A stretch of 64,000 bases of DNA from Parcubacteria group bacterium (GCA_050260915.1 JBLNCT010000114.1:3220-67219); one strand, 5' to 3'; shown: positions 2,177 through 19,222, counted from the first letter of the stretch. Program-made: numbers and translations. The notes: generated from the letters alone by a model not told the origin.

Positions 2177-2198
2177 CTCGAAAAAAATCCTCGTCTCG

Positions 2199-2226: not shown

Positions 2227-2281
2227 TGGCTGAGTAGGGGCGGAGTGTGTCGGCCCCCAAGCCAAAGGGGAGGGGGCGCGC

Positions 2282-2806: not shown

Positions 2807-3843
2807 GCCGGCCCAACGACATCCCCCTGCTGATCGAGCACGCCGCCGACTGGTTCGCGCAGAAGCGCTCCGGCCGGATGACGGCCGAGGAACTGCAGGC
2901 GCTGCACGCCTGGCTCAACGACAGCCCCGAACATGCCGCCGCCTATCATGAAGTCGCCGGCGCCTGGGATGTGGCCGGCGCGGTGCGCTCCGATCCGGAG
3001 ATCCTCCAGGTCCGCGAACGGGCGCGCCGAGAGCGGCCGCGCGGCTGGACGGCGGCGGTTGCGGCGTCTGTCGCCGTGGCGGTCCTGGGCAGTTGGTCGG
3101 CGCTGGGAGTGGGCGGCTATGTGCCGGCGCCCCTGATCCTGACGGGAGGAGAGCAGACCTTCCGCACCGGGGTTGGCCAGACCGCGACTGTGCGGCTGCA
3201 GGACGGCTCCCTGATTACCCTCGACACGGACTCGGTGGTCCGGGCGAAGGAGACAGACCATCGGCGCATGCTGTGGCTCGCCAAGGGCCAGGCCTTCTTC
3301 AAGGTCGCCCACGACAAGAGCCGCCCCTTCACGGTGGCCGCCGGCGACAAATTGGTCACCGCGACCGGCACCGCGTTTTCCGTGCGGCTGGACCGCAAGG
3401 CCGTGGAGGTGACGCTGGTCGAGGGTCACGTGCGCGTCGAGGAAACCGCGCCCGATGTTGCGCTCCCGTCGAAGAAGCCGCGCTTCACGGAGGCGACGGA
3501 AATGCAGGCGGGCTCGAAATTGGTGGCCGCGCAGGACCGCAACTGGACGCTCGACAAGGTCGACTCGAAAAAGGCCGTCAGCTGGATGGACGGCGAACTC
3601 ATCTTCGAGGATCGCCCGCTCGTCGAGGCCGCGGCGGAACTCAACCGGTATTCGTCAAAGAAAATCGTAATCCGCGACCCCGTCATAGCCAATTCGCCGA
3701 TCGTCAGTGTTGTAAAGGCCGGCGACGTGGAAGGTTTCGTCCGCGTGGTGACGACGGCCGGCTTTGCGCGCGTGGTTTCCGACAACGACCGCGAGGTCGA
3801 ACTCGCCGCTCCCGAAGAAAATTCGGCGGGGGCGGGTGCATGA
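2803..3843 (+). CDS. FecR-family anti-sigma / transmembrane sensor #1
   Basis: Start reassigned to ATG 2803 (ATGA overlap with the sigma stop). AADWF..WL..SPEHAAAY N-terminal domain, a TM helix, LQDGSLITLDTDS and W.DGELIFED.PL..AAAELNRY FecR motifs. Confidence 0.92.
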   Translation: MSRPNDIPLLIEHAADWFAQKRSGRMTAEELQALHAWLNDSPEHAAAYHEVAGAWDVAGAVRSDPEILQVRERARRERPRGWTAAVAASVAVAVLGSWSALGVGGYVPAPLILTGGEQTFRTGVGQTATVRLQDGSLITLDTDSVVRAKETDHRRMLWLAKGQAFFKVAHDKSRPFTVAAGDKLVTATGTAFSVRLDRKAVEVTLVEGHVRVEETAPDVALPSKKPRFTEATEMQAGSKLVAAQDRNWTLDKVDSKKAVSWMDGELIFEDRPLVEAAAELNRYSSKKIVIRDPVIANSPIVSVVKAGDVEGFVRVVTTAGFARVVSDNDREVELAAPEENSAGAGA

Positions 3844-3861
3844 TTTTTCAGAACCCCACTC
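3834..3861 (+). promoter_or_regulatory. Putative ECF-sigma-1 promoter upstream of TBDR1
   Basis: Same motif and spacing as 2199-2226; overlaps the FecR1 stop codon. Confidence 0.6.
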
Positions 3862-3912
3862 ATGTAAATCAAGGGGAGTGTGTTGCTCCCCAAAGAATTG
3901 GGGGAGGTCCAA

Positions 3913-6900
3913 GTGACAAAGAGGGGAATGAAGCGGCACGCGCTGCTGCTGTGCGGGGCTGCGTCTATTGCGCTGGCCACGGCGGGATTTGCCGAAGCGG
4001 CTGAGGCCGCGCAGTTCGACATCCCGGCCCAGCCGCTGTCCACCGCGCTCGCCCAGTTCGGCGTGCAGAGCCAGCATGGCGTTTTTGCCGATTCCGCGCT
4101 TACCAGCACCCGGATGACCCAAGGCGTCTCCGGCGAGAAAGACGCGGAACTCGCCCTGAACGAACTCCTTGCCGGCACCGGGCTTTCATGGCGACGCGAC
4201 GGCCAGTCCTTCGTCATCGTGAGGGCCTCCGACCCCCAGTCCGGAAGCGCCGCGGGGGACGGCGCTGACGGAACCGTCGCCGCCCTGGTGGTCACCGCGC
4301 AAAAGCGCGAAGAAAATATCCAGGACGTGCCGATCGCTATGTCGGCGTTCACGCAGGAAGACCTGACGCGCAGCCAAGTCGCCGGCGGCCCCGACCTGAT
4401 GACCCAGGTCCCGAATTTCACCTTCACCAAGACCAACTTCACCGGCTATTCGATCCAGATTCGAGGGATCGGCACGCAGGCCATTTCGGCCACGACGGAT
4501 GCGGCCGTGGCCGTCGCGTTCAACAACACGCCCTTCATCCGTAACCGCTTCTTCGAGCAGGAATTCTACGACCTTCAGCGCGTCGAGGTGCTGCGCGGTC
4601 CGCAGGGGACGCTCTACGGCCGCAATGCGACGGCCGGCGTCGTGAACCTGATCTCGCAGAAGCCGAAGTTCAGCTACGAGGCCAGAGCCTCGCTGGACGT
4701 CAGCAACTACAGCAGCCACCGTCTCGAGGGCATGATCAACATGCCGTTGGTCGAGGACAAGGTCGCCCTGCGCATCGCCGGCGCCTGGACCAAGCGCGAC
4801 GGCTACGACACCAATCAGATCACGGGCAATCAGATCGACGGCCGCGATCTGTGGTCCACGCGTGTCTCGCTGCGTGTCGAGCCGACCGATTTCATCCACG
4901 CCAACCTGATCTGGGAACACTTCCAGGAAAACGACGACCGCCTGCGCTCGGGCAAGCAGCTCTGTAACACGCACGAAGTCACCGAGGTCGCGGGGTTTGA
5001 GACGACGCACTACCAGACCTTACCCGAAGTCGGGCAACCGCTGCTCGGCGCGGGTGTGCAGGCCTCGTTCAGCCAGGGCTGTCTTCCGGCCTCGCTTTAT
5101 GCGCCGGAGTCGTTCCAGACGCCGAATGGCCTGACGCTGCCCTACTATGCGCCGCTCAGCGCAATCGGCCTGCCGGTGTCCGGCGGCTCCTTCGATTTCG
5201 TGGACCCATACGTCAGCCGCACGCAGTCGCATGACCTGCGCACCATCGAGTCGACGGTCGACCCGGACTATCGCGCCAAGACCGACGTGGCCGAACTGCA
5301 GGTCAGCTTCGACCTTGCACACGACCTGACGCTGGCCTCGGAGACGGCCTACCTGGCGGACCGCGTCTTCTCGATGGAGGACTACAACCGCTTCAACACA
5401 GCGCCGGGCGTCTGGGAGAGGCCAGAGGATACCCCGCCATGGATCCACTATCGTGAAGGCGTGCTCCTGCACGGCGACCAAGGCGGCGTCTTCTGCGACC
5501 CGCAGGTCGGCTGCTCCGACCGCCTCGTCGCGGTCGACCTGTCGACCGCCAACTCGCGGCAGTTCAGCCAGGAATTCCGCCTGTCGTCGAATTATGCGGG
5601 CGCGTTCAACTTAAGCCTCGGCGCCAATTTCCTGCGCTACGACACCGATGAAAAATACTACGTTTTCATCAATAGCCTGACCCTGATTGCCGCCCTTTCG
5701 ACGAACGGCTTCGGGACGATGACGCCGTATCAGGCGGGCGTCAGCGATAACGCGGAGTGCATGAGGAACGGCGCCGAGCCGCCTGATCCCAACGCCATCG
5801 CCGATATCGGCTACTGCACCGCCATCGATCCGAACCCGATCGGCAGCCTGAACGACCTTGGCCACAACTACTTCCTGTCGAAGAACCCCTACAAGCTGAT
5901 CTCCTACGCGGTCTTCGGCGAAGCCTATTACGACCTCACGGCCAACCTGAAGCTGACCGCGGGCCTGCGCTGGACGGTGGACAAGAAGGAAGCGCCGAGC
6001 ATTCCGAGTTGGGTCGTCGCGTCGAAGTCCGTCGGCTATCCGGTGGAAGAGGTGATCCGGCAGACATGGCGGGAGCCCACCGGCCGCCTTACGCTGGACT
6101 GGAAGCCTGACCTGTCGTTCACCGACGACACGCTGGTCTACGCCTCCCTGGCTCACGGCTACAAGGCGGGCGGCGCCAACCCGCCGCCGACCGGACCGGT
6201 GGCCTATTGCAGCAACTGCGGGGAAAACCTCGACGTCTCGAACGCCAAGGTCTCCGCGTCGCACCCGAAGACCTTCGACCCGGAGTATGTCAACGCTCTG
6301 GAGATCGGATCGAAGAACACGCTGCTCGACGGCCGCCTGACCCTGAACGGCGATTTGTTCTACTATGACTATACCGGCTACCAGATTTCCCAGATCGTCG
6401 ACCGCTCGGCGGTAAACCTGAACATCGACGCCAGGGTCTGGGGCGCCGAGCTGGAAGCCGACTGGCGGCCCAGCGAGAACCTGCGGCTGGGCTTCAAGGG
6501 CGGATACGAGAACACCCGCATCGCCGACGGCATGAAAGCCATCGACCTGATGGACCGCACCGCCGGGCACGAGGGCTGGATCGTCGTCCGGCCGTTCCCG
6601 ACCTTCACCTCCAACTGCATCATGCCGGCCGAGCTCTTCGTCGGCACGGGCGTCCTCAACGGCGGCGGCGGCCCTGATCCGCACCTGATCAACCTGGGCG
6701 GCAAGGGCGGCGGCAATCCGGGGCCGTGCGAGATTGCCTATTCCCTGGGCCACGACCCGGTGACCGATGCGCCTTACGTCGACCTGACGACCGTGCCTGG
6801 CCCGGTGACGGAAGGTTACCTCAGCACACTGATCAATCACCCCGACTACAAGGGCTGGAACCCCGCCTGGGCGCCCAACAACGGCGAAGGCTTCGACAAG

Positions 6901-8385
6901 GACCTGTCCGGCAACGCCCTGCCGAACGCGCCGAAGTTCACGGCGACGGTGACGGCTGATTACACCGTGCCGCTGCCGCACGACTGGCTGGTCACGCTGC
7001 ACAGCGACTTCTACTACCAGTCGGAAGCCTGGACCCGGATCTTCAACACGCCGGGCTACGACAAGCTCAAGGCCTATACCAACGTGAACCTGGCCGCGAT
7101 CTTCTCCAACGAAGACGCCGGCTGGAGGGTCATGGCCTACGTCAAGAACGTCTTCGACCATGACGCGATAACCGGCGCCTTCCTGAACTCCGACGACACG
7201 GGCCTGACCACCAACGTGTTCCTGAACGAGCCCAGGCTCTTTGGCCTGCGGGTCACGAAGGAGTGGACGGGCCAGGGCTGGTGGACCGGCGCCAACCCCA
7301 ACCATACCGGCCCATATCCCTTCACCATCGAAGTCGGCGGTCAGGTCCAGCGGCAGGACGCTGCGTATTCGGTCGGCGCGCCAGGGTTCGCGAACGCGTT
7401 CTCGGACACTCTGGACATCTTCGCCGCCCCGCAGAACCGCGACCTCGATTGGGGTGACGGGCGGGAGCTGAAGCTGACCTACCGACCGAACGGCAGCCCC
7501 TGGAGCCTGTCGGCCGGCATGCGTTACGGCCGCACCAACACCGGAACGACGCGGCTCCATGCGCTGGAGAGCTCCGGTCCCGCGCAATGCGCCTTCCCGA
7601 CCACCGGGCCGTTCGCGTCGTTCGGCCGGCGGTTCTGCGATCCGACCTACGTCTACGGCAGTTATCCCGCCGGTTATTTCTACAGCAGCTTCGCGCTGCG
7701 GTCGGCGACCAACGTGGCGGACGCCTCGGCGCGGTCGCACGAGGAGCACTACCTCGGCGACTTCGAGGTCGGCCGGGACGTGGGGCTCGGCCTCCTGGGC
7801 CAAGGCCGCTCTTCGGTCGAGGGCGGGCTGCGCTATGCCGACTTCAAGTCCTCCACCGCGTCGTCGATGAGCGGCATCCCGAATTCGACGGTGCCGGACG
7901 CCTGGATCTTCAAGTACGCCAGCCTCGACCGTTACAGCGCCGCGATCCAGGCGGATCGTGAATTCAAGGGCGCCGGGCCAATGGTCGCCTGGGACGCGGG
8001 CAAGGCGCTGTGGAGCGATGGCGGCGCGGGGCACGTTGACCTCGACTGGCGCATCGGCGGCGGCGTGTTGTTCGGCAAACAACACACGACGATCGCCGGC
8101 GAGCAGACGGCCGCCCATTACTACGGCCGCTTTGTTTACGGCCCGCCGCGGCTAGGCGAGCCGGTGACGACGCCGATAAACATCGCGCGGGACCAGTCCG
8201 CGACCGTCCCCGTCCTAGACCTCTCCCTCGGCCTCTCCTACGAGATCGAGCGCATCAAGGTCGGCGCCGGCTACCGTTGGGAGCGCTACTACAACGTCCT
8301 CGACGCCGGCTACGCGGAACACAAGTCGTACGACCGCACCATCGACGGGCCGTACTTCAAGATCGCCGTCGGCTTCGGCGGCTGA
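3913..8385 (+). CDS. TonB-dependent receptor #1 with N-terminal STN signalling domain and an extra ~370-aa C-terminal beta-barrel-like domain
   Basis: Signal peptide, STN (FDIPAQPLSTAL), TonB box region VVTAQKREE, plug motif VEVLRGPQGTLYGRNATAG; barrel end homologous to the paralogs at ~7266. Start GTG 3913 chosen for RBS ggggagg (ORF track start 3880). Confidence 0.93.
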   Translation: MTKRGMKRHALLLCGAASIALATAGFAEAAEAAQFDIPAQPLSTALAQFGVQSQHGVFADSALTSTRMTQGVSGEKDAELALNELLAGTGLSWRRDGQSFVIVRASDPQSGSAAGDGADGTVAALVVTAQKREENIQDVPIAMSAFTQEDLTRSQVAGGPDLMTQVPNFTFTKTNFTGYSIQIRGIGTQAISATTDAAVAVAFNNTPFIRNRFFEQEFYDLQRVEVLRGPQGTLYGRNATAGVVNLISQKPKFSYEARASLDVSNYSSHRLEGMINMPLVEDKVALRIAGAWTKRDGYDTNQITGNQIDGRDLWSTRVSLRVEPTDFIHANLIWEHFQENDDRLRSGKQLCNTHEVTEVAGFETTHYQTLPEVGQPLLGAGVQASFSQGCLPASLYAPESFQTPNGLTLPYYAPLSAIGLPVSGGSFDFVDPYVSRTQSHDLRTIESTVDPDYRAKTDVAELQVSFDLAHDLTLASETAYLADRVFSMEDYNRFNTAPGVWERPEDTPPWIHYREGVLLHGDQGGVFCDPQVGCSDRLVAVDLSTANSRQFSQEFRLSSNYAGAFNLSLGANFLRYDTDEKYYVFINSLTLIAALSTNGFGTMTPYQAGVSDNAECMRNGAEPPDPNAIADIGYCTAIDPNPIGSLNDLGHNYFLSKNPYKLISYAVFGEAYYDLTANLKLTAGLRWTVDKKEAPSIPSWVVASKSVGYPVEEVIRQTWREPTGRLTLDWKPDLSFTDDTLVYASLAHGYKAGGANPPPTGPVAYCSNCGENLDVSNAKVSASHPKTFDPEYVNALEIGSKNTLLDGRLTLNGDLFYYDYTGYQISQIVDRSAVNLNIDARVWGAELEADWRPSENLRLGFKGGYENTRIADGMKAIDLMDRTAGHEGWIVVRPFPTFTSNCIMPAELFVGTGVLNGGGGPDPHLINLGGKGGGNPGPCEIAYSLGHDPVTDAPYVDLTTVPGPVTEGYLSTLINHPDYKGWNPAWAPNNGEGFDKDLSGNALPNAPKFTATVTADYTVPLPHDWLVTLHSDFYYQSEAWTRIFNTPGYDKLKAYTNVNLAAIFSNEDAGWRVMAYVKNVFDHDAITGAFLNSDDTGLTTNVFLNEPRLFGLRVTKEWTGQGWWTGANPNHTGPYPFTIEVGGQVQRQDAAYSVGAPGFANAFSDTLDIFAAPQNRDLDWGDGRELKLTYRPNGSPWSLSAGMRYGRTNTGTTRLHALESSGPAQCAFPTTGPFASFGRRFCDPTYVYGSYPAGYFYSSFALRSATNVADASARSHEEHYLGDFEVGRDVGLGLLGQGRSSVEGGLRYADFKSSTASSMSGIPNSTVPDAWIFKYASLDRYSAAIQADREFKGAGPMVAWDAGKALWSDGGAGHVDLDWRIGGGVLFGKQHTTIAGEQTAAHYYGRFVYGPPRLGEPVTTPINIARDQSATVPVLDLSLGLSYEIERIKVGAGYRWERYYNVLDAGYAEHKSYDRTIDGPYFKIAVGFGG

Positions 8386-8387
8386 CA

Positions 8388-8457
8388 CCCCGGTCCCCTC
8401 TGAACCGGAACAACCTGAGAGGCGGCGTCTCCCCCGGGCGCCGCCTCGAATTTTTTT
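8388..8457 (+). ncRNA. Conserved TBDR 3' element copy 2 (degenerate) plus terminator
   Basis: ccggtcccctctgaaccgga, then gaggcggcg-tctcccccggg-cgccgcctc-gaattttttt. Confidence 0.45.
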
Positions 8458-8465
8458 CACCCCCC

Positions 8466-8499
8466 CCGACCTGTAGGGTTCGCGCCCTCTTGCGTCAGT
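8466..8499 (+). promoter_or_regulatory. Putative ECF-sigma-2 promoter (autoregulatory copy)
   Basis: CCGACCTGTAGGG..CGCGCC..TTGCGTCnGT, repeated with the same 34-nt length at 10069-10102. Confidence 0.65.
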
Positions 8500-8541
8500 A
8501 CAAACGGTGGAGTGTCATTTCCGCCGTCGAAGGGGGCCCCA

Positions 8542-9078
8542 GTGGCGCAGCCGCCGCATCCGTCCAGCATGGCGCAAGCGGTCATCCGCGAGGAGGACCT
8601 GCGCGCCTGGATGGTCGAGTACGGGCCCGCGCTGCGCCGGTACTTCGAGCGCCGCGTCGGCGCCGCCGAGGCGGAGGACCTGGTGCAGGACGTCTTCCTC
8701 CACCTCCAGGCCCGCGCCGTCGGCGGGGCGGTGGACAACGTGGAGCGCTACCTCTTCCGCATCGCCGGCAACGTGCTGGTCAGCCGCCACCGGCACCGCA
8801 ACGCCCGCGGCTTTCCCCTCACCGATGCGCTGGACGAGGCGCTCGAGCCCGTCGAAACCATCGCCGCCGAGCGCGTGCTGATCGGCAAGCAGGACGTCGC
8901 CCGCGTCATCGCCGCCATGCAGGCCCTGCCGCCCCGCACGCGCGAGGCCTTCATCTTCCACCGCTTCAACGAGATGACCTATCCCGCCATCGCGCGCCGC
9001 ATGGGCATCTCGGTCAGCGCCGTCGGCCAGCTGATCGCGCGTGCGCTGGAAAAGCTGACCGAGGAGACCTGCGCATGA
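8542..9078 (+). CDS. ECF sigma factor (FecI-like) #2
   Basis: AEDLVQDVFL and LPPRTREAFIFHRFNEMTYPAIARRMGISVSAV. GTG 8542 gives the same MAQPP start as sigma #1 (ORF track 8512). Confidence 0.93.
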   Translation: MAQPPHPSSMAQAVIREEDLRAWMVEYGPALRRYFERRVGAAEAEDLVQDVFLHLQARAVGGAVDNVERYLFRIAGNVLVSRHRHRNARGFPLTDALDEALEPVETIAAERVLIGKQDVARVIAAMQALPPRTREAFIFHRFNEMTYPAIARRMGISVSAVGQLIARALEKLTEETCA

Positions 9079-10052
9079 GCCGGGCCGCCGCATCGGACTG
9101 GTTCGCGCGGCGCCGCTCCGGGGCGCTGACGCCGGACGCGCAGGCGGAGCTCGACGCCTGGCTCGCCGACCCCGACAACCGCGCCGCCTTCGCCGACGTC
9201 GAGGCCACCTGGGCGCTGGTCGACGCCGCCCGCGACGACCCCGCCATGCTGGCGATGCGCGAGGCCGCCGAGCGCGCCCATCCGCCCGCGCGGCGCCGAT
9301 GGGTCGTCGGAGGCGCCATCGCCGCCAGCCTGGCCGCCGCCGCCGTCGCCTGGCCGCTCGCGACCTCGCCTGACCTCGCCGCCCGCCTGCCGATCCCCGG
9401 CGCCGACACCCGCACGGTCAGCACCGGCGCGGGCCAGATGACCACCATGACCCTGCCCGACGGCACGCTGGTCACGCTCGACGCCGACACCGTGCTGAAG
9501 ATGCGCGACACGCCCCGCCAGCGGCTGGTCACCATGGAACGCGGCCGCGCCTTCTTCCGCGTGGCCAGGGATGCGCGCCGCCCCTTCAACCTGATCGCGG
9601 GGGGCAAGAAGGTCACCGCGACCGGCACGGCGTTCGACGTCAGCCTCGCCAACAACTGCTTCGAGCTGGTGCTGGTCGAGGGCAAGGTGAAGGTCGCCGA
9701 CGCCTCGGTCTTCCGCCGCCCACAGGCCGCCGAGCTGGCCCCCGGCTCGCGCCTGGTCGTGGCGACGGAAGGGCGCTGGGCCGTCACCCGCGTGAACGTG
9801 GAAAAGGAAACCGGCTGGCTGAAGGGCTGGCTCACCTACGACCGCGCGCCGATGGGCAAGATCGCGGCCGACCTCAACCGCTATTCCGAAAAGCAGATCG
9901 TCATCGCCGACCCGCACGTCGCGGCCACCCCGATGATGGGCGCCTTCAAACCCGGCGACATCGACAGCTTCGTGCGCGCGGCGCGTTACTACGGCTACGC
10001 GCGCGTGACCTCCGAGTCCGGCGGAGAGGTGGTGCTCGCCGCCCCGGAATAG
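9075..10052 (+). CDS. FecR-family anti-sigma #2
   Basis: ATGA overlap with sigma #2; ASDWF, LPDGTLVTLDADT and DLNRYS motifs. Confidence 0.92.
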   Translation: MSRAAASDWFARRRSGALTPDAQAELDAWLADPDNRAAFADVEATWALVDAARDDPAMLAMREAAERAHPPARRRWVVGGAIAASLAAAAVAWPLATSPDLAARLPIPGADTRTVSTGAGQMTTMTLPDGTLVTLDADTVLKMRDTPRQRLVTMERGRAFFRVARDARRPFNLIAGGKKVTATGTAFDVSLANNCFELVLVEGKVKVADASVFRRPQAAELAPGSRLVVATEGRWAVTRVNVEKETGWLKGWLTYDRAPMGKIAADLNRYSEKQIVIADPHVAATPMMGAFKPGDIDSFVRAARYYGYARVTSESGGEVVLAAPE

Positions 10053-10068
10053 AATTTTTTCAGCGGCG

Positions 10069-10102
10069 CCGACCTGTAGGGCGCCGCGCCGATTGCGTCT
10101 GT
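10069..10102 (+). promoter_or_regulatory. Putative ECF-sigma-2 promoter upstream of TBDR2
   Basis: Matches 8466-8499; preceded by the T-tract gaatttttt. Confidence 0.65.
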
Positions 10103-10148
10103 CGCTTCAGGGGGCTTCGCGCTCCCGGGAAAAAGGGGGAGCGAAACG

Positions 10149-13100
10149 ATGCACAAATCCGACCTGAAGCGCCTGCTGTGCGGCGCCGCCGCGATGGCGC
10201 TGGCCTTGCCGATGGCCGCCCACGCCGAAGTCGCCAACTTCAACATCGCGGCCCAGCCGCTGAGCTCCGCGCTGAAGGAATTCAGCATTCAGAGCCAGTA
10301 TAGCCTCGTCGCGCCGCCCGACGTGATCGCCGCGAAAACGACCGCCGGAGTGTCGGAGTCCGCCGAGCCCGAAATCGCGCTGGCCGCGCTCCTGCAAGGC
10401 ACGGGCCTCAGCTACCGCCGCGAAGGAAACACCTTCCTCATCGTGGGAGCCGACGCCCCCCAGTCCGGCAGCGCCGCGGGGGACGGCGCCGGGACCGTTG
10501 AAGCCCTGATCGTCACGGCTCAGAAAAAGGAAGAGGCGATCCAGGACGTGCCGATTGCTATCAGCGCGTTCACGGAGAAGAGCCTGGAGGAGCAGAAGAT
10601 CGAGGGCGGGTTTGACCTGCTGAAGGCGATCCCGAACGTTACGTTCTCGAAGAACAACTTCACGTCCTACAACTTCAGCATCCGCGGCATCGGCACCAAG
10701 GCCGTAAGCGCCACGACCGACCCGGGCGTGGCCGTCAGCTTCAACAACGTCGCCCTGATCCAGAACCGCCTGTTCGAGCAGGAGTACTTCGACGTCGAAC
10801 GCGTAGAAGTCCTGCGCGGGCCGCAGGGCACCCTCTATGGCCGTAACGCCACGGCGGGTGTCGTAAACCTGATCTCAGCCAAGCCGGATATGGATGAATT
10901 CAAAGGCTGGCTGAAGGGCGAGGTTGGCAACTACCACACCAAGCGTCTCTCGGCGATGGTCAACGTCCCTCTCATCGAGGACAAGCTCGCTATCCGCTTT
11001 GCGGGCGCTCTGACGGAGCGGCAGGGGTATGACTACAACACCGGCACCCACCACGCGGTGAACGGCCGTGATCTTTGGTCAGGCCGGATCACGATTGGCT
11101 TCGATCCGACGGAAAGCCTCCACGCCGACTTGGTCTGGGAGCGCTTCAACGAAGACGACAATCGTTCGCGCACCGGCAAGCAGCTCTGCCACCGTGATGA
11201 TGGCCGGGAGTACGTGGGAACTACGCCCACCGCTTCTGTGGACGTGTTTGGACAAGATTTCACCGTACTCCGGCAGGCGCTGTTCTCCCAAGGCTGCAAG
11301 GCCGGTTCTCTGTACGAGAACGCGGCCTTTGGTACGCCGAACGGACTTGCGTTGCCACTCGTCTGGGGCCTCCTGATGACCGGTAGCAATGGCTTCTACT
11401 CACTGAACTACCCGTATTCTGGCTATACGGGACCGCAAACCCTTATCGCTCTCCAGGACCCCTATGGTGGGATGATGCAATCTCGCGACCTGCGCATGAT
11501 AAATTCCTTCCGGGATCCGGTTTATCGGGCTAAGGCCGATATAGTCGAGCTCAATATAAACTGGTCTCCTCGCGATGCCATCACGATAACATCTCAGATG
11601 GCATACAATCGAGATTCTACGTATTCATTTCAAGATTATAACCGGTTTAACACGACTCCAATCTTTGTTGATACGTCAAATTTTTCAGTTTTCGCGTATA
11701 ATGTCAATCCGACCGCATACCGGACGCTGGCTCCCGGCGGCGTCTTTTGCGACCCGCAACTCGGTTGCTCAAATACCTTCGCAGCGTTTGATATTGCTCA
11801 GGCGAAGGGTGAGCAGTTCAGCCAGGAGGTCCGAATCCAATCTTCTTTCGGGGGTGCGTGGGACTTCAGCGCCGGGGCTAACTACACCCAATACAGGACG
11901 AGCGTAGATTATTACGTGATGTCCAATTTGATGACGGCAATGGCGATGGTAAAGCCGTTCAATTTGCCTGAGGAATATCCGGGCGCGGTCGCCGGTTGGG
12001 ATTACTGTTACGGGACTCCCATGTTCTCCGGCGGAGTCAAATATCCGTTAGGTGCGGCAGGTAGTGGCTGTCCCTACATCGATCCTAATCCGGTCGAAAG
12101 CCTCAATGGTGAGGGGCACAACTATTTTCGCTCCAAGAATCCTTATAAGTTGAAGTCGGGAGCGGTGTTTGGCGAGCTGTACTGGCGGCTCAGGGATGAC
12201 CTGAAGCTGACAGCGGGGGGGAGGTACACTGACGACCGGAAAGTGTTTATTCCCGTTCCAAGTCAGTTGCTGCTTGCCGAGGGCTACATCGCTGGGGGTG
12301 ACGTGAATCGCGGTTACCCAGAGCTAGAGCCCATAAAGCAGCGCTGGGGGGAATGGACCGGGCGAATAGGGGTGGACTGGAAGCCGAGACTGTCGTGGAG
12401 CGATCAGACGCTCATCTATGCCTTCTACTCGCATGGTTACAAAGCCGGCGGCGCTAATCCGCCGCAGCCAGGGTTCAGTAAACAAACGTTCCTGGACGTG
12501 CAGGGCTTCACTAAAGAGCAGCAAATCTCTCTGCTCGACTTCTACCCGGATGGGCCGGTACGCGATTACGTTTCACGCTTCGTCTTCCATCCAATCTTTG
12601 AACTCACCGGCGTGGACTATGGCCCCACATTCAAGCCTGAGTTTGTCAACGCGTATGAACTCGGAACGAAGAACACATTGTTCGGTGGCGGGCTCGCCGT
12701 AAACGCGGATACGTTCTTCTATGATTACAAAGATTACCAAGTCTCTCAGATCAAAAATAGAACAGCCGTGAATGAAAATTTTGATGCAAAGGTATGGGGT
12801 GTTGAGTTTGAAGCGCTGTTCGCGCCATCGAGAGATTTAGCGATAAACGCCAGCCTCGGCTACCTCGGCACTAGGATAGCAGACGGTGAGACGTCGATTG
12901 ATATCATGAATCGAACACAAGGAAATCCAGACTTGGTCGTTGCTAAGCCGTGGCCGCAATTGCCGTCAAACTGCGTTGTGCCGGTTTGGGTTGCGGAAAA
13001 CTGGCTTCAAAATCATGCCCAGCTTGGCCAATTCTTTGATCTCTGCGGCGGCGCTAACGGCTTTGTGGCGGCATTCCCATCGGCGTTTGTGATGGACACG

Positions 13101-13556
13101 CACACCTCGAGTCTCTATGATCCGAACTACTACAACGGCGAGAATGGTACATTCAATATAAACGGCGGTGCTGGGATTCGCGCCGACCTGGGAGGCAATC
13201 AACTGCCGAATGCGCCGCATTGGACGATGAACATCGGCGCCCAGTACGGCCGCGACATCCTCGAAGGCTCCTGGCGGGCGACGGTGCGGGCCGACGCGTA
13301 CTGGCAGTCGCAGTCCTGGGCGCGGGTCTACAACGACGACCCGTACGACAAGCTCCACGGCTGGTACAACGTGAACCTGTCCGTCTGGCTGGAGCGTCCC
13401 GAAGACGATCTGAAGATCGAGTTCTACGCCAAGAACCTGCTCGACAAGACGCCGATCACCGACGCCTTCCTGAACTCCGACGATAGCGGCCTGACCACCA
13501 ACGTCTTCGTGCTCGACCCGCGCCTGATCGGGCTCAGCATCAAGAAGGGGTTCTAG
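10149..13556 (+). CDS. STN-containing TonB-dependent receptor #2
   Basis: Signal peptide, STN, IVTAQKKEE, VEVLRGPQGTLYGRNATAG; C-terminal Phe (KKGF). Confidence 0.95.
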   Translation: MHKSDLKRLLCGAAAMALALPMAAHAEVANFNIAAQPLSSALKEFSIQSQYSLVAPPDVIAAKTTAGVSESAEPEIALAALLQGTGLSYRREGNTFLIVGADAPQSGSAAGDGAGTVEALIVTAQKKEEAIQDVPIAISAFTEKSLEEQKIEGGFDLLKAIPNVTFSKNNFTSYNFSIRGIGTKAVSATTDPGVAVSFNNVALIQNRLFEQEYFDVERVEVLRGPQGTLYGRNATAGVVNLISAKPDMDEFKGWLKGEVGNYHTKRLSAMVNVPLIEDKLAIRFAGALTERQGYDYNTGTHHAVNGRDLWSGRITIGFDPTESLHADLVWERFNEDDNRSRTGKQLCHRDDGREYVGTTPTASVDVFGQDFTVLRQALFSQGCKAGSLYENAAFGTPNGLALPLVWGLLMTGSNGFYSLNYPYSGYTGPQTLIALQDPYGGMMQSRDLRMINSFRDPVYRAKADIVELNINWSPRDAITITSQMAYNRDSTYSFQDYNRFNTTPIFVDTSNFSVFAYNVNPTAYRTLAPGGVFCDPQLGCSNTFAAFDIAQAKGEQFSQEVRIQSSFGGAWDFSAGANYTQYRTSVDYYVMSNLMTAMAMVKPFNLPEEYPGAVAGWDYCYGTPMFSGGVKYPLGAAGSGCPYIDPNPVESLNGEGHNYFRSKNPYKLKSGAVFGELYWRLRDDLKLTAGGRYTDDRKVFIPVPSQLLLAEGYIAGGDVNRGYPELEPIKQRWGEWTGRIGVDWKPRLSWSDQTLIYAFYSHGYKAGGANPPQPGFSKQTFLDVQGFTKEQQISLLDFYPDGPVRDYVSRFVFHPIFELTGVDYGPTFKPEFVNAYELGTKNTLFGGGLAVNADTFFYDYKDYQVSQIKNRTAVNENFDAKVWGVEFEALFAPSRDLAINASLGYLGTRIADGETSIDIMNRTQGNPDLVVAKPWPQLPSNCVVPVWVAENWLQNHAQLGQFFDLCGGANGFVAAFPSAFVMDTHTSSLYDPNYYNGENGTFNINGGAGIRADLGGNQLPNAPHWTMNIGAQYGRDILEGSWRATVRADAYWQSQSWARVYNDDPYDKLHGWYNVNLSVWLERPEDDLKIEFYAKNLLDKTPITDAFLNSDDSGLTTNVFVLDPRLIGLSIKKGF

Positions 13557-13562
13557 GCGCAA

Positions 13563-13718
13563 CCCTCCTCCCTCGAGGGGAGGAGGGCAGGGTGGAGGGT
13601 GTGGCCGCTGAGTTTGGCGAAGAAGCACTGTTGGGCGCAGAGCCAAACAGCGCCAGCCTGTCAGCTCACTGCACTCACCCCTATCCCCGGCCCTTCCCCC
13701 CTCGAGGGGGAAGGGAGA
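13563..13718. repeat. Intergenic repeat with paired CCCTCCnCCCTCGAGGGG hairpins (resembles Caulobacter CIR-type repeats)
   Basis: Terminal palindromes ccctcctccctcgaggggaggaggg and cccttcccccctcgagggggaaggg. Confidence 0.65.
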
Positions 13719-13723
13719 GTTCC

Positions 13724-13791
13724 CCGGCTTCGGTCCCCTTCGAACCGGATCACTGCAAGGCGGTCGCCCCCACCGGCGGCCGCCTTTTCTT
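13724..13791 (+). ncRNA. Conserved TBDR 3' element copy 3 plus terminator
   Basis: ccggcttcg-gtcccctt-cgaaccgga, then aaggcggtcgcc-cccacc-ggcggccgcctt-ttctt. Confidence 0.55.
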
Positions 13792-13833
13792 CGCCCGCTT
13801 GACACCTTCGCCAACCCGCCGACGCTTACGCGT

Positions 13834-14367
13834 ATGTACGCACGTGAGGTCCGCACCGACACGGCCGCCCGGCAGGCGCTGGACGAGCGCTACCGCGCGC
13901 CTCTGATGGCCTTTTTCCTGCGCCGGCTCTCCGACCGCGCGGAGGCCGAGGACCTGGTGCAGGAAGTCTTCGTCCGCATGGTCGCCCGCGGCGCTTCCGA
14001 CGACATCCGCAGCGCCGACGCCTTCGTCTTCGCCATCGCCGGCAACCTGCTGCGCGACCGCGCCCGCCTCCAGGCCACCCGCAGCGCCTCGGCCCACACG
14101 TCCCTCGACCCCGCCGACGACGCGCCGGACGAAAATCTTGTTGAGCATTCCACGCCCGACCGCGTCTTACTCGGTAGGGAGCGGCTCACGCTCGTCCAGC
14201 GGGCGCTGACCGAGCTGCCCGAGCGTACGCGTAACATCTTCGTCCTCTACCGCATGGAGAACATGCGCCGGCGCGACATTGCGATGCTTTATGGAATCAC
14301 CGTCAGCGCCGTGGAAAAGCACATCGCCAAGGCGCTGGACCACCTGATGGCGAGGCTGGAGCGATGA
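13834..14367 (+). CDS. ECF sigma factor (FecI-like) #3
   Basis: AEDLVQEVF and LPERTRNIFVLYRMENMRRRDIAMLYGITVSAVEKHIAKA. A TTGACA at ~13798 suggests a housekeeping-type promoter. Confidence 0.93.
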   Translation: MYAREVRTDTAARQALDERYRAPLMAFFLRRLSDRAEAEDLVQEVFVRMVARGASDDIRSADAFVFAIAGNLLRDRARLQATRSASAHTSLDPADDAPDENLVEHSTPDRVLLGRERLTLVQRALTELPERTRNIFVLYRMENMRRRDIAMLYGITVSAVEKHIAKALDHLMARLER

Positions 14368-15341
14368 GCGCGAACGACACCCGCCGCGCCGACGCCGCGC
14401 TTTGGCGCACCCGCCTGGAGGAGGAGCCCCAGCTCGCGCTGACGCCCGAATACCTCGATTGGTCCGCCGAGCCCGCCAACCGCGCGCTGTCCGACCGGGC
14501 CGACGAGGCCTGGGACCTGGTGGGCGAGCTCTCCGCCACGCCGGAGATGATCGCGCTGCGCCACGCAGCCCTTGCCGACGCCCGCAAAACCGCCGCCCGC
14601 CGCTGGTCGCCCCGCCTGCCGCGCATGGCCGCGGCCATAGCCGCCGGCGTGGTGCTGGCCGCCAGCGCGGGCGGCGCCTGGCTGCTCTCGCCCACCATCT
14701 ACCGCACCGACATCGGCGAGCGCCGCGTCGTAACCCTGCAGGACGGCTCGCGCATCTCCCTCGACGCCGCCAGCGAGGTGAAGGTTCGCTATACCCACGG
14801 CGCGCGGAAGCTGGAGCTCGTCCACGGCCAGGCCCGCTTCGACGTCGCCCGCGACCTTGCGCGCCCCTTCGTGGTCGACGCCGGCGACCGCACGGTTTCG
14901 GCCACCAAGGGCGCCTTCAACATCGACCGCGCCGCGCGGAAGGTCTGCGTCACCCTGCTCGACGGCGCGGCCATCATCCGCCCCGACGCCGGCCTGTTCC
15001 ACCGCGCGGCGCCCGAAAAACCGCGCCTGCTCAACGCCGGCCAACAGCTGACCGTCGCCTCCCGGGGCGAGGCCGTCGCGACCGCAGACCCGCGCGAAGT
15101 CACCGCCTGGGAACGCGGCGAACTCGTCTTCACCAACGAGCCCCTGGCCGACGCCGTGGCGCGCGTGAACCGCTATTCCGTGCGCCGCATCGAGGTCGAC
15201 CCCAGCGCGGCGCCGTTACGCATTTCCGGCGCTTTCAATGCGGGCGACACTGCGTCCTTCCTCGACGCGATGGCCAGCTACTTCAACCTCGAGGCCGTGC
15301 CCTCGTCCGACGGAAAGGTGATGCTGCAGGCGCGATCCTGA
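14364..15341 (+). CDS. FecR-family anti-sigma #3
   Basis: ATGA overlap; LQDGSRISLDAAS and W.RGELVFTNEPLADAVARVNRY motifs. Confidence 0.93.
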   Translation: MSANDTRRADAALWRTRLEEEPQLALTPEYLDWSAEPANRALSDRADEAWDLVGELSATPEMIALRHAALADARKTAARRWSPRLPRMAAAIAAGVVLAASAGGAWLLSPTIYRTDIGERRVVTLQDGSRISLDAASEVKVRYTHGARKLELVHGQARFDVARDLARPFVVDAGDRTVSATKGAFNIDRAARKVCVTLLDGAAIIRPDAGLFHRAAPEKPRLLNAGQQLTVASRGEAVATADPREVTAWERGELVFTNEPLADAVARVNRYSVRRIEVDPSAAPLRISGAFNAGDTASFLDAMASYFNLEAVPSSDGKVMLQARS

Positions 15342-15456
15342 CGGCCGTGAAAATTTTTTTGCCGGAGTGCTGAGCATCCGCGTCCCCGTCCCGTCCTCCA
15401 CTACGAGAGCCCGCGTTGCAGCGGGCCTGGCGGCGCCCGGGGGAGGGGCTTCTACG

Positions 15457-18400
15457 ATGACGAATACTCGGAAGATCTTGATGGGCGCCTCGGCGCTGGC
15501 CGGCGCGCTGTCGATCGCGCTGACGGCGACGGCTGCGAGCGCCGAGACAAGGCCGATCGCCTTCGACCTGCCGGCCCAGCCGCTGGGCGAATCCTTACGC
15601 GATTTCTACCGGGAGTCCGGCGAGCAGATCGTCTTCTCCGAAGACCTCGTCGCCGGCCGCACCAGCCCGGCGCTGAAGGGCAGCTACACCGCAGACCAGG
15701 CGCTCGCCATGCTGCTCGAGGGCACCAACCTCAGCGCGCGACGCACCAGCACGGGAGTGGTGATGATCGAAGCCCCCCAGTCCGGCAGCGCCGCGGGGGA
15801 CGGCGCTGACGCGGGGACGGTTGCTGCGCTCGTCGTGACGGCGCAGAAGCGTGAGGAGAACATCCAGGATGTGCCGATCGCGATCTCGGCCTTCACGGAG
15901 AAGTCGCTCGAAGAACAGAAGATCGAAGGCGGCTTCGACCTCCTGAAGGCGATCCCGAACGTCACCTTCTCGAAGAACAACTTCACCAGCTACAACTTTA
16001 GCATTCGGGGCGTAGGCACCAAGGCGATCTCCGCCACCACCGATCCGGGCGTGGCGGTGTCGTTCAACAACATCGCCCTGATCCAAAACCGCCTGTTCGA
16101 GCAGGAGTACTTCGACGTCGAACGCGTCGAGGTGCTGCGCGGGCCGCAGGGCACGCTCTATGGCCGCAACGCGACCGCCGGTGTGATCAACGTCATCTCG
16201 GCCAAGCCGAACCTGCAGGACTTCTCCGGCTGGATCAAAGGCGAGGTGGGCAACTACCACGCCAAGCGCCTCTCAGCGATGGTCAACGTCCCCCTCGTCC
16301 AGGACAAGCTCGCCATCCGCCTTGCAGGGTCACTCACCGACCGGCAGGGCTACGACTACAACGAAGGCACCCACCGCGCGGTGAACGGTCGCGACCTGTG
16401 GTCAGGCCGCGTGACCGTCGCGTTCAACCCCACGGACCGGTTCCGCTCCAACCTCATTTGGGAGCGCTTCAACGAAGACGACAACCGCTCGCGGACCGGG
16501 AAACAGCTGTGTCATCGTGACCCGGGACCGACGATGATCGGGAACACGGCCGTCGCCCAGCCTGACGAGTCCGGCGGCTACTTCGATGCCCCCCTTCGCC
16601 AGGCGTTGTTCTCGCAGGGTTGTTTGCCCGGTTCGTTGTACGACGATGCGGCCTTCGGAACGCCGAACGGCCTGTCTCTGCCTTTCATCTTCGGAATGCA
16701 CCAGGCCCAGCAGATTATACAGGTTGGCCCATACAATCCGGAAACACACGTTTTCGAGGACTTCCTGCAGCTACGTGATCCGTACGGTGGCATGATGCAG
16801 TCGCGGGACCTCAGAGTCATCGACTCGATCATGGATCCGGTCTATCGCGCCAAAGCGGACGTCGTTGAGCTGAATCTCGAATTTGATGTCACAGACGCCC
16901 TGAAATTGTTCTCCCAGGCAGCGTACGACCGCGACACAGTTTATTCTTCGCAGGATTATAACCGGTTCAATACTGGGGAAATATTCCGGGATTCCTCAAT
17001 TCTATTGGGAGGCTACGCGAGTCTCTCACCCGGAGGAGTGTTTTGCGATCCGCAACTGGGCTGCTCCAAGTCTATGGTCGGGTACGATATTTCGAAGGCC
17101 AAATCAGAGCAATTTTCTGAAGAGATACGCCTTCAGTCAAGCTTCACAGGCCCGGTGAACTTCAGCGCCGGCGCCAACTACACGCGCTTCAGAACCTTGG
17201 TGGACTACTATGTCTTTAATAACATGATAACGGCCATGGCGATGTTGCCGCCGTTCATGGCCTGGGATCCACCGTCCCAGCCGGTCGCCTTTGATACCTG
17301 TTCCATGTTTATAGATCTTACCGGTACGATCTTCCCCGCCGGAGATCCCCGTTCCGCGTGTCCTTACATCGATCCCAACCCGCTCGAAAGCATCAACGGC
17401 GAGGGCCACAACTACTTCCGCAGCAAGAATCCCTACCGGCTCCTGTCCACCGCGGCATTTGGCGAACTGTACTGGCAGTTTTCCGATGCTCTGAAGGTGA
17501 CGGCGGGGCTCAGGTACACCGATGACCGCAAGACGTTTACGCCGGTGCCGAGCCAGGTGCTGCTTGCACCGAGCTTTTTTGCCGGCGGCACTGTCGCGCG
17601 CGGGTATCCGGCGCTGCCCGATATAAAGCAGCATTGGGGCGAGTGGACCGGGCGGCTTGGCGTGGACTGGAAACCGGAACTCCCCTTCACGGACCAAACT
17701 ATGGTCTATGCCTTCTACTCCCGGGGCTACAAGGGCGGCGGAGCGAACCCGCCCACGCCAGGCTATGGCGACAAATCGCTTGTCGACTACCTCGGAGATT
17801 TCCTCAGCTTTATCGTACCGCAACAGGACATCGAGCGGTTCACGCGTCCGATCTTGCAGCTTCCGGCTGACTACGAGCCGACCTTCAAACCCGAGTTCGT
17901 CAACGCCTTCGAAACGGGCGTCAAAAACACGCTGTTGGGCGGCGCGCTTGTGTTGAATGGCGACGCGTTCTTCTATGATTATAAGGACTACCAAGTTTCC
18001 CAAATAAAGCTGCGGACGGCCGTCAACGAAAACTTCGATGCGAAAGTCTGGGGGCTAGAGTTCGAATCGCTGTTCAGTCCAAGCCGCAATTTTCACATCA
18101 ATGCGAACCTTGGCTATCTGAACACCCGGATTGGAAATGGCCAGCGTTCCATTAACATCATGGATCGAACGCAGGGCAATCCGAACTATGTGCTTGCGAA
18201 GCCGTGGCCGTTGCTCCCCGCGAACTGTATCGTGCCCGAGCACGTTGCGGAGGAGTTCGCAGGATTCTTCACACGGCCGGATGGCTCCACTTACCGAAAG
18301 TACACTATTAACCAGGCGACTTTCCTTTGCGGGGGGAGCAATGGCTTTCTCGAGGCGCTAGGCATCACCAATGGCGTCATCGATACCCGTACCGGAGCCC

Positions 18401-18849
18401 TCTACGACCCGTACGCCCGTGACGCCAATGGCAATCTGCTCTATCCGGAAATCAACGGCGGGGCCGGCCTCTACGAGGACGTGTCGGGCAACCACCTGCC
18501 CAACTCGCCGCACTGGACGATGAACATCGGCGCGCAATATAGCCACGATATCCTCGATGGCTCCTGGCGAGCGACGGTCCGCGGCGACGCTTACTGGCAG
18601 TCGCAGTCCTGGGCTCGGGTCTACAACGATAACCCATACGACAAGCTGCACGGCTGGTATAACGTGAACCTGTCAGTGTGGCTGGAGCGGCCTGAGGACG
18701 ACCTTAAGATCGAGTTCTACGCCAAGAACCTGCTCGACAAGACGCCGATCACCGACGCCTTCCTGAATTCCGACGACAGCGCGCTGACGACGAACGTCTT
18801 CACGCTCGATCCCCGACTGATCGGGCTGTCTATCCGCAAGGGCTTTTAG
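15457..18849 (+). CDS. STN-containing TonB-dependent receptor #3
   Basis: Start reassigned to ATG 15457 (RBS gggaggg, signal peptide MTNTRKILMG); STN, plug motif, terminal Phe (RKGF). Confidence 0.95.
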   Translation: MTNTRKILMGASALAGALSIALTATAASAETRPIAFDLPAQPLGESLRDFYRESGEQIVFSEDLVAGRTSPALKGSYTADQALAMLLEGTNLSARRTSTGVVMIEAPQSGSAAGDGADAGTVAALVVTAQKREENIQDVPIAISAFTEKSLEEQKIEGGFDLLKAIPNVTFSKNNFTSYNFSIRGVGTKAISATTDPGVAVSFNNIALIQNRLFEQEYFDVERVEVLRGPQGTLYGRNATAGVINVISAKPNLQDFSGWIKGEVGNYHAKRLSAMVNVPLVQDKLAIRLAGSLTDRQGYDYNEGTHRAVNGRDLWSGRVTVAFNPTDRFRSNLIWERFNEDDNRSRTGKQLCHRDPGPTMIGNTAVAQPDESGGYFDAPLRQALFSQGCLPGSLYDDAAFGTPNGLSLPFIFGMHQAQQIIQVGPYNPETHVFEDFLQLRDPYGGMMQSRDLRVIDSIMDPVYRAKADVVELNLEFDVTDALKLFSQAAYDRDTVYSSQDYNRFNTGEIFRDSSILLGGYASLSPGGVFCDPQLGCSKSMVGYDISKAKSEQFSEEIRLQSSFTGPVNFSAGANYTRFRTLVDYYVFNNMITAMAMLPPFMAWDPPSQPVAFDTCSMFIDLTGTIFPAGDPRSACPYIDPNPLESINGEGHNYFRSKNPYRLLSTAAFGELYWQFSDALKVTAGLRYTDDRKTFTPVPSQVLLAPSFFAGGTVARGYPALPDIKQHWGEWTGRLGVDWKPELPFTDQTMVYAFYSRGYKGGGANPPTPGYGDKSLVDYLGDFLSFIVPQQDIERFTRPILQLPADYEPTFKPEFVNAFETGVKNTLLGGALVLNGDAFFYDYKDYQVSQIKLRTAVNENFDAKVWGLEFESLFSPSRNFHINANLGYLNTRIGNGQRSINIMDRTQGNPNYVLAKPWPLLPANCIVPEHVAEEFAGFFTRPDGSTYRKYTINQATFLCGGSNGFLEALGITNGVIDTRTGALYDPYARDANGNLLYPEINGGAGLYEDVSGNHLPNSPHWTMNIGAQYSHDILDGSWRATVRGDAYWQSQSWARVYNDNPYDKLHGWYNVNLSVWLERPEDDLKIEFYAKNLLDKTPITDAFLNSDDSALTTNVFTLDPRLIGLSIRKGF

Positions 18850-18862
18850 GCAAACCCACAGT

Positions 18863-18980
18863 CGTCATCCCACGGTCGGCTGAAAGCCGATCCGGGGGAC
18901 CCAAGCGGCGCACCTTATCTTGCACTGCAGCTTGGGTCCCCCGGACGTCACCCGCTTCGCAGGTTCGCCGGGGGATGACG
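18863..18980. repeat. Palindromic intergenic repeat (CGTCATCCC ... GGGATGACG)
   Basis: Terminal inverted repeats plus internal ccgggggaccca / tgggtcccccgg arms. Confidence 0.7.
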
Positions 18981-18992
18981 CGGCTTTGATTG

Positions 18993-19060
18993 TCCGGTTT
19001 CGGTCCCCTTCGAAACACGGATCAACTGGGCGGCCGCTCCCCAGCGGCCGCCTTTTTCTT
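18993..19060 (+). ncRNA. Conserved TBDR 3' element copy 4 plus terminator
   Basis: tccg-gtttcg-gtcccctt-cgaaac-a-cgga (stem changed but still paired), then ggcggccgct-cccc-agcggccgcc-tttttctt. Confidence 0.55.
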
Positions 19061-19114
19061 CGTTGGGGCCGGTGAGGTTGTCCCCGTCGTCCGCGGCAGC
19101 CCTACACTGGGGCG

Positions 19115-19222
19115 ATGACCCATCTTATCCCCGCCCTCGCGAAATCCCCCTACGTGCGCGCGCATCGCATCGCGCGTGCGCAATACGCCCGCCCCTCCGT
19201 CCGGCCGCGCGCGCGACCCGGT
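19115..19222 (+). repeat. Duplicated ~110-bp intergenic segment, copy B
   Basis: Homologous to 604-722. Confidence 0.55.

Follow-up and report, generated by a model that had tools for sequence, protein, structure and literature searches.

A linker island conserved at the nucleotide level lies at the probable junction of module exchange in an expanded family of sigma/FecR/TonB-dependent-transducer loci

The stretch of DNA analyzed here (the window) comprises 64,000 nucleotides of a Parcubacteria group bacterium (GCA_050260915.1) and corresponds to positions 3220-67219 of contig JBLNCT010000114.1 (C114), within a source genome of 2.99 Mb in 123 contigs (G000 in the following). Three successive loci on the plus strand each contain a sigma factor gene of the extracytoplasmic function (ECF) type, followed by a FecR gene and a gene encoding a TonB-dependent receptor (TBDR). 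Pfam searches on such loci identified Sigma70_r2/r4, FecR, STN, Plug and TonB_dep_Rec_b-barrel, i.e., an order of the FecIRA type. The linker connecting STN to the plug is encoded by a short DNA segment, called the island below, which separates a signaling module (sigma, FecR and STN) from a transport cassette. The features are listed hereafter, with coordinates counted from the first nucleotide of the window.

276-350, plus strand: 3' hairpin and terminator of the preceding TBDR, whose own island lies upstream of the window, at C114:284.
2282-4230, plus strand: signaling module 1, with the ECF sigma gene (2282-2806), the FecR gene (2803-3843) and the signal peptide and STN of TBDR1 (3925-4230).
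4231-4269, plus strand: TBDR1 linker island, reading GAC CCC CAG TCC GGA AGC GCC GCG GGG GAC GGC GCT GAC.
4246-4266, plus strand: palindrome AGCGCCG-CGGGGGA-CGGCGCT within the TBDR1 island.
4270-8385, plus strand: transport cassette 1, long class, with TonB box, plug, barrel and a C-terminal Legionella_OMP-like extension.
8386-8460, plus strand: 3' hairpin of the GGTCCCCTCTGAACCGG type and terminator, ending cassette 1.
8512-10454, plus strand: signaling module 2, with sigma (8512-9078), FecR (9075-10052) and the N-terminus and STN of TBDR2 (10149-10454).
10455-10490, plus strand: TBDR2 linker island, reading GGC GCC GGG at its end in place of GCT GAC, an ending absent from only two G000 copies.
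10491-13556, plus strand: transport cassette 2, short class.
13717-13792, plus strand: 3' hairpin CCGGCTTCG-GTCCCCT-TCGAACCGG and intrinsic terminator (z -5.3), the right end of cassette 2.
13834-15771, plus strand: signaling module 3, with sigma (13834-14367), FecR (14364-15341) and the N-terminus and STN of TBDR3 (about 15454-15771).
15772-15810, plus strand: TBDR3 linker island.
15811-18849, plus strand: transport cassette 3, short class, whose closest paralogue (C32_12433) is on another contig.
18987-19065, plus strand: 3' hairpin and terminator ending cassette 3, pushed away from the stop codon by an insertion resembling repetitive extragenic palindromes (REP).

A reading made from the sequence alone had noticed that the three linkers share the 33-mer cccccagtccggMagcgccgcgggggacggcgc, encoding the peptide PQSGSAAGDGA. 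Indeed, this motif was found on the plus strand at 4233-4265, 10457-10489 and 15774-15806 with no mismatch to the degenerate pattern, while matches occurred in 0 of 100 shuffles, and the peptide is encoded between the Pfam domains STN (aa 53-100) and Plug (aa 132-239). TBDR1 is, as described, the distant paralogue of the three (plug-region nucleotide identity of 67% versus 81%). When the 5' regions of the three TBDR genes were aligned as DNA, the motif appeared as an island of identity amid synonymously divergent sequence. It is longer than first noted, extending over about 37-39 nt (GAC CCC CAG TCC GGM AGC GCC GCG GGG GRC GGC GCT GA).

With up to 6 mismatches allowed, 45 copies of the island were counted in G000, all of them in the STN-to-plug linker of sigma/FecR/TonB-dependent-transducer loci. 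The frame is the same for every copy, and the island lies 94-451 residues from the beginning of the stop-to-stop frame of a TBDR open reading frame (ORF) of 1077-1564 aa, and sigma and FecR genes lie 5' of the island in the 43 copies out of 43 for which enough upstream sequence is available. Outside G000, a scan of 185,579 species genomes returned a single other carrier, a Caulobacteraceae metagenome-assembled genome (G041) with at least 27 copies. At least 130 more were found in contigs from soil and rhizosphere metagenomes, which are 65-88% identical to G000 outside the island. The motif was found in 0 of 24 sampled genomes of the same genus, and about 400 genomes of the family Caulobacteraceae gave 0-2 matches each to the 20-nt core, which corresponds to the chance level. 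The closest TBDR homologues in relatives mostly have no STN domain, and the linker of one STN-bearing outgroup TBDR is unrelated to the island. The host family would be a lineage-specific and hugely expanded set of ECF-sigma/FecR/TonB-dependent-transducer loci. One further locus of the family carries a decayed island. Besides, two long-class loci of G000 located outside the window (C80:23116 and C34:33364) carry a second type of island, CCCCAGTCAGCCGCCGCCGAGGGGGAGGGCGGCGCTGAC, with another stem (GCCGCC/GGCGGC); the GGGGGA loop, the leading CCCCAGTC and a TGA in the -1 frame are all kept in this type II.

The island is conserved as nucleotides and not merely as a peptide. In a codon alignment of the 45 G000 paralogues, codon identity was near 1.0 over the columns D-P-Q-S-G-S-A-A-G-D-G-A-D, while invariant Gly, Thr and Val columns just 3' of the island reached only 0.29-0.40. 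Non-preferred codons are fixed within it, namely CCC (45/45), GGG (45/45) and GCT (43/45). The retention of GGG for glycine, first pointed out on the three copies of the window, thus extends to the whole genome, other invariant Gly columns being mostly GGC. A wobble tally was then obtained from 204 distinct copies pooled from G000, G041 and the metagenome contigs. Variants were present in 0-3 copies at wobble positions 6, 18, 21, 24, 27, 30, 33 and 36, whereas positions 12 (TCN), 15 (GGN) and 39 (GAN) varied in 28, 64 and 83 copies, respectively, and the rare GCT codon was present in 202 copies. Synonymous positions therefore do not vary freely, those of the palindrome being invariant across the tally. 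The frozen letters fall into two blocks, CCCCCAGTC and AGCGCCGCGGGGG-N-CGGCGCTGA; in the latter, the arms of a 7-bp inverted repeat enclose a G-rich spacer of 7 nt. Since the letters of the palindrome arms were given as N in the pattern used to search the metagenomes, their invariance is no ascertainment effect.

These data bear on the simplest explanation, i.e., ordinary conservation of the peptide combined with codon bias. PQSGSAAGDGA is nearly invariant, as this explanation predicts. However, non-preferred CCC, GGG and GCT are fixed in the island while invariant residues elsewhere vary synonymously, and non-synonymous changes at positions 2 and 29 (48 and 50 of the 204 copies) are commoner than synonymous ones at the eight frozen wobbles. 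Furthermore, the peptide changes freely in the locus with the decayed island. The codon alignment and the wobble tally thus refute this explanation, to which we attach a negligible probability. Several other roles were rejected by eye: an ECF promoter, as the GGA/GGC wobble breaks the GGAAC -35 element; an internal start, there being no in-frame start codon; a GANTC methylation site, as no GANTC is present; and an antisense terminator, for which no U-tract was seen.

In the source genome, the island coincides with a sharp change of ancestry. Over 35 complete G000 loci, the distance matrices of sigma, FecR-N, FecR-C and STN were mutually correlated (r 0.58-0.82), as were those of the plug and barrel segments (r 0.56-0.93), whereas correlations between the two blocks ranged from -0.07 to 0.05. 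The 8 codons located 5' of the island track the signaling module (r of 0.56, versus 0.02 with the barrel), codons +12 to +32 after it track neither module, and from codon +32 on the sequence tracks the barrel (r of about 0.7). Single polymorphic codons, from 10 codons 5' to 27 codons 3' of the island, are unlinked to either tree. The closest pairs of G000 barrels, 88-90% identical at the nucleotide level, are on different contigs and have unrelated signaling modules. The shared stretch sets in sharply at the island, or as much as 45 nt 5' of it, and stops immediately past the T-run of the terminator; beyond these limits the loci are unrelated. Signaling modules have no recent duplicates in G000 (maximum aa identity of 0.68-0.71), which indicates that copying was non-reciprocal and confined to the cassette. 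This lack of recent duplicates also led us to discard unequal crossing-over in tandem arrays as the principal mechanism.

The comparison between genomes leads to the same position. Signaling modules are 1:1 orthologues, with 72-82% nucleotide identity to G041 (module 1 of the window corresponding to locus L070) and 84-89% to the metagenome relatives. As the plug is about 80% identical across all paralogues, ends of high-scoring BLAST segments are unfit for placing a breakpoint, and rank tests were used instead. In 15 of 15 loci, the STN region ranked first with its own orthologue, while random ranks among the 45 G000 paralogues were obtained for the 95 nt adjoining the island on its 3' side and for the remainder of the plug. 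At the 38 loci compared, identity of the barrel core to G000 barrels did not exceed 73%, and the orthologous locus never provided the best match, although upstream identity between orthologues was 84-89% at the same loci. The comparison with G041 agrees, including switches between long and short classes downstream of orthologous signaling modules; for instance, the G041 orthologue of signaling module 2 (L059) bears a long-class barrel. In a barrel tree labeled by genome, 7 label changes were counted versus 19.6 in shuffles (none of 500 shuffles reached so low a number), whereas in the STN tree the genomes are interleaved (27 label changes, the maximum) and barrel class is randomly spread. The exchange is illustrated by metagenome contig L134, which carries the orthologue of signaling module 3 and a long-class barrel between the same flanks as TBDR3: orthology holds on the left for sigma/FecR/STN (about 80%) and on the right for the convergent gene that follows (85%), and a different, long-class cassette replaces only the segment in between, which begins with the island and stops with the terminator. 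Conversely, at the locus with the decayed island the plug is still orthologous (ranks 1, 2 and 1), as expected if exchange there needs an intact island (n = 1).

Breakpoints thus fall within a few codons of the island, within as well as between genomes. The sequence-only reading had proposed two interpretations of the conserved linker, and these comparisons lend strong support to one of them, a hotspot of recombination or gene conversion at which STN and transport modules are swapped. We consider with high confidence that the island is the junction of module exchange.

Such exchange could by itself explain the conservation, if frequent short-patch gene conversion kept the island identical in the absence of selection on its letters. 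This neutral concerted evolution would fit the lack of linkage of the polymorphic codons around the island to both flanking phylogenies. Besides, the major alleles at the free sites are genome-specific (GGA at 73% and GAC at 93% in G000; GGC at about 70% and the glycine codon GGC at about 85% in G041) although the signaling modules are orthologous. However, the same conversion zone is rich in synonymous polymorphism right beside the island (columns 137-141), frozen and free wobble sites interleave within it, and its identity is kept across lineages that are only 65-88% identical elsewhere. The abrupt fall of codon identity at the island edge, from 100% to about 35%, together with this interleaving, indicates that short-patch conversion is insufficient. 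Replacement of whole cassettes, with about one event per locus since the species split and closest barrel pairs about 10% diverged, is too rare to homogenize the island. Therefore, direct selection on the island sequence is required, and purely neutral homogenization appears quite improbable. The region is no mutational cold spot either: in an orthologous pair whose island has decayed, 4-5 of the 33 positions have changed, as many as expected from the background rate.

Some features of the loci touching the exchanged part deserve mention. The extension of the long class, about 350 aa, follows a normal TBDR C-terminus and matches Pfam Legionella_OMP (PF05150, E 1.5e-12); it is encoded at 7267-8385 in TBDR1 and is present in at least 11 other G000 TBDRs of about 1450-1560 aa. 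The long class forms one deep clade in the barrel tree. Over 38 complete G000 loci, the GC content of barrel cores (in the window, 4970-6870, 11190-13090 and 16510-18410) was 57.0%, versus 70.1% in their own signaling modules and 67.6% in the genome, and the GC content at third codon positions was 0.70 versus 0.85-0.87 in STN and plug. This is compatible with a separate history, or with fast AT-biased divergence, of the exchanged part. In 15 of the 45 copies, the codons for A-L-V-V of the TonB box read GCTGGTGG, the Chi octamer of E. coli, at a site 15-25 nt 3' of the island (e.g., C80:743 and C81:10715 of G000, outside the window). On contig C23, a tyrosine integrase (9768-10268) adjoins two TBDR loci (islands at 13353 and 19715) whose post-island sequence (GCTGAAGTCGAGGCGCTGATC) and barrels are like the G041 type and not the G000 type; to judge from these sequences, whole loci may have been transferred between lineages.

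At the other end of the cassette, the 3' hairpin has a conserved UCCCCU loop and a covarying stem (TTCG/CGAA, ATCG/CGAT, GTCG/CGAC) and is followed by the intrinsic terminator. It is significantly structured compared with shuffles (z -5.3) and is absent from relatives like the island itself, both elements being equally clade-specific. In several loci, long REP-like palindromic insertions (e.g., CCCTCCTCCCTCGAGGGGAGGAGGG ... CCCTTCCCCCCTCGAGGGGGAAGGG) lie between the TBDR stop codon and this hairpin; in the window, at 13560-13712 and 18860-18985, they have displaced the hairpin and not destroyed it.

The presence of a C-rich hairpin loop after the stop codon is the basis of the other interpretation of the sequence-only reading, in which the loop of the linker hairpin would kiss that of the 3' element in cis or in trans. 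More generally, the island could be kept for a function at the RNA level, recombination being a by-product of its perfect identity: its G-rich loop would pair with the C-rich 3' hairpin loop of the same or other TBDR mRNAs, or its hairpin would be bound by a trans factor co-regulating the family. The elements described do exist, as the linker hairpin AGCGCCG-CGGGGGA-CGGCGCT folds (-12.9 kcal/mol, z -2.3 alone) and the GUCCCCU loop of the 3' element is complementary to its loop. Frozen positions coincide with the 7-bp stem, the G5 loop and the upstream C5 block, with the free wobbles in the spacer between them, and the type II island has a different stem with the same GGGGGA loop. The structured, covarying and clade-specific 3' hairpin also speaks for this explanation. 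On the other hand, no loop-loop covariation was seen: the G041 loop is mostly GGGGGGC while the 3' UCCCCU is unchanged, a change of A to G that turns an A-U pair into G.U, still allows pairing and so argues neither for nor against a kiss. The 6-nt GGGGAC/GTCCCC match is at chance level in shuffles (p of about 0.7), and in a 57-nt context the linker hairpin is no stabler than shuffles (z -0.2); Ala and Gly codons (GCC/GGC) yield such stems for free. Moreover, the island lies about 400 nt inside a translated ORF. A longer antisense partner was not found in the genome, where 13-14-mers complementary to the island are no more numerous than expected by chance and never fall at a conserved intergenic position. 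Rfam gave no credible match on the island or the 3' hairpin, and only spurious miRNA-type hits over window positions 1-20000 (E-value mode). A search for RNA-seq runs returned only contigs of soil metagenomes, in which at most 0.10 of the words were present. The kissing loop thus received no positive support, with a chance-level match and no compensatory change. An H-type pseudoknot pairing C5 with the loop G5 was rejected by reasoning on geometry, as one nucleotide would have to span a 5-bp stem. Overall, an RNA-level role seems, to judge from sequence comparison, rather unlikely.

The G-run itself suggests another reading of the frozen letters, in which it would be a slippery site. A -1 ribosomal shift, or the slip of one additional G in DNA or RNA, would give GGA CGG CGC TGA, so that translation would stop three codons later and release a soluble periplasmic STN-only protein modulating FecR signaling. 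This TGA follows the G-run in the -1 frame in 43 of the 45 G000 copies (e.g., window 4257-4269), and 3 codons later in the other 2, as well as in 27 of 27 G041 copies. It is kept through GAC->GAA and GCT->AGT changes and also in the type II island, the GCT codon that creates it is the one found in 202 of 204 copies, and in most copies no other stop interrupts the -1 frame over some 100 codons 5' of it. However, the zero-frame GCG GGG GAC (or GGC) provides no X XXY YYZ heptamer, leaving only P-site slippage on the G-run, and codons 137-145 vary synonymously, i.e., there is no conserved stimulatory structure downstream. G5 is also too short for efficient DNA slippage, and the T of GCT closes the palindrome, an equally good reason for keeping this codon. 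Slippage would therefore be a highly improbable explanation.

The explanation that we favor is that the island forms the left junction of an exchangeable cassette composed of TonB box, plug, barrel, 3' hairpin and terminator. The sigma, FecR and STN modules would be old, divergent and stably inherited 1:1, while one locus would acquire a copy of the barrel of another, in most cases an unlinked one and with no transfer in return, leading to barrel turnover within each genome. Crossovers would take place on the left within the island or just 3' of it, and on the right where the terminator ends. Beside unalignable STN regions, about 37 nt of perfect identity would provide the sole homology for a RecA-type process. 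Alternatively, the 7-7-7 palindrome, which has the architecture of a recombinase core site, could act together with the CCCCCAGTC block as a site read by a dedicated enzyme. We infer that the island causes the exchange and does not merely sit at the exchange point; for the whole statement, namely that its exact letters are kept because it is the exchange substrate, we regard the balance of arguments as about even.

Several considerations weigh against this causal explanation. A pure homology anchor should hold all positions about equally; three free and eight frozen wobbles point instead to recognition of a specific sequence or structure, and such a site-specific pattern would equally fit an RNA or protein-binding element with recombination as a by-product. 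Selection for recombination competence is second-order and usually weak. Barrels turn over too slowly for conversion alone to have made the island uniform, and uniformity does not extend to the neighboring synonymous sites. Class switches occur although the two barrel classes do not share the same right-hand homology (3' hairpin and terminator), and the support from the decayed island amounts to one locus. Finally, no recombinase was found consistently beside the islands among 8 PF00589 (tyrosine recombinase) hits, of which only C23:9768 adjoins an array and two look like XerC/D, serine recombinases not having been searched. A bolder proposal, which we put forward tentatively and hold to be unlikely, is that the island and the 3' hairpin-terminator are the ends of a mobilizable in-frame domain cassette read by a dedicated hairpin or palindrome recombination machinery. 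This would be an integron-like system moving whole transporter domains between dozens of pre-wired signaling circuits, within and between related soil bacteria. In local alignments, the island and the 3' element matched each other as terminal inverted repeats no better than shuffles did.

The promoter regions of the signaling modules also contain repeated elements. Just 5' of the third sigma gene, at 13795-13833, a conserved TTGACA box precedes the palindromic motif GCGTACG..CGTACGTGAGG, and this arrangement is also present at G041 loci L055, L067, L068 and L074; it is a candidate common operator for sigma/FecR operons. A promoter-like repeat, TTTTTTCA..CCGACCTGTAGGG..GCGTC, lies 5' of both sigma 2 (8452-8499) and TBDR2 (10055-10102), which fits a putative private ECF promoter pair.

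Bacteria are known to vary their surface proteins by cassette exchange. In Neisseria pilE/pilS and Borrelia vlsE, variable segments are bounded by short recombination blocks conserved at the nucleotide level, copying is non-reciprocal, and hairpin or G-rich elements lie near the exchange point in systems of this type. Similarly, a conserved left block (the island) and a right block (3' hairpin and terminator) flank the variable segment described here, which alone is copied, non-reciprocally. By contrast, there are no silent promoterless donors and no single expression site, all copies being full-length ORFs with their own sigma and FecR; the swapped unit is a whole transporter domain of 3-4 kb and the conserved partner a signaling module. 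Loop-loop kissing regulation is exemplified by OxyS-fhlA. As in regulators of this kind and in small RNAs derived from 3' untranslated regions, a hairpin with a C-rich loop and a terminator come right after the stop codon and are complementary to a G-rich target loop, but here the complementarity is limited to 6 nt and does not covary.

Gene order and domains (Sigma70_r2/r4, FecR, STN-Plug-barrel) are those of FecIRA cell-surface signaling. Unlike in FecIRA, a 3-Mb genome contains at least 47 loci, the Legionella_OMP extension is found on some barrels, and the very nucleotides of the linker are frozen. We know of no description of such an extension of a TBDR or of a nucleotide-frozen linker, and our literature search for the extension and for a nucleotide-frozen STN-plug junction returned none. 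In Bacteroides, programmed inversions or shufflons exchange parts of SusC/RagA-type TonB-linked genes (Cerdeno-Tarraga 2005 and Nakayama-Imaohji 2009, as cited in PMC9881135), and TonB-linked proteins are given there as a statistically enriched target class of programmed inversion (PMC9881135). As in these shufflons, a short conserved DNA in or at the 5' part of a receptor gene joins alternative bodies to one upstream part. However, the Bacteroides systems switch reversibly within a clone, by means of a site-specific invertase encoded next to inverted repeats that are spaced by a few kb, whereas all islands of a multi-copy contig are on the same strand and have no consistently adjacent recombinase. 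Each island belongs to a complete gene that looks expressed and is accompanied by a sigma and an anti-sigma of its own, and exchange is seen on an evolutionary time scale only. Co-oriented sites, the lack of a consistently adjacent recombinase and complete loci together indicate that the family is not a shufflon. Its mode of operation is closer to that of cassette systems based on conversion, albeit with no silent cassettes.

New to our knowledge is an exchange point located in the coding linker between signaling and transporter domains and frozen letter by letter in more than 200 genes of several species. The island offers a concrete sequence for the study of minimal-homology or site-directed recombination in Alphaproteobacteria, and the family provides a natural example of modular protein engineering. 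The exchange of modules at this junction would explain how a rhizosphere bacterium with a 3-Mb genome comes to have about 47 sensor-transporter circuits, in which the wiring is stable while the barrel, exposed to ligands and phages, is renewed.

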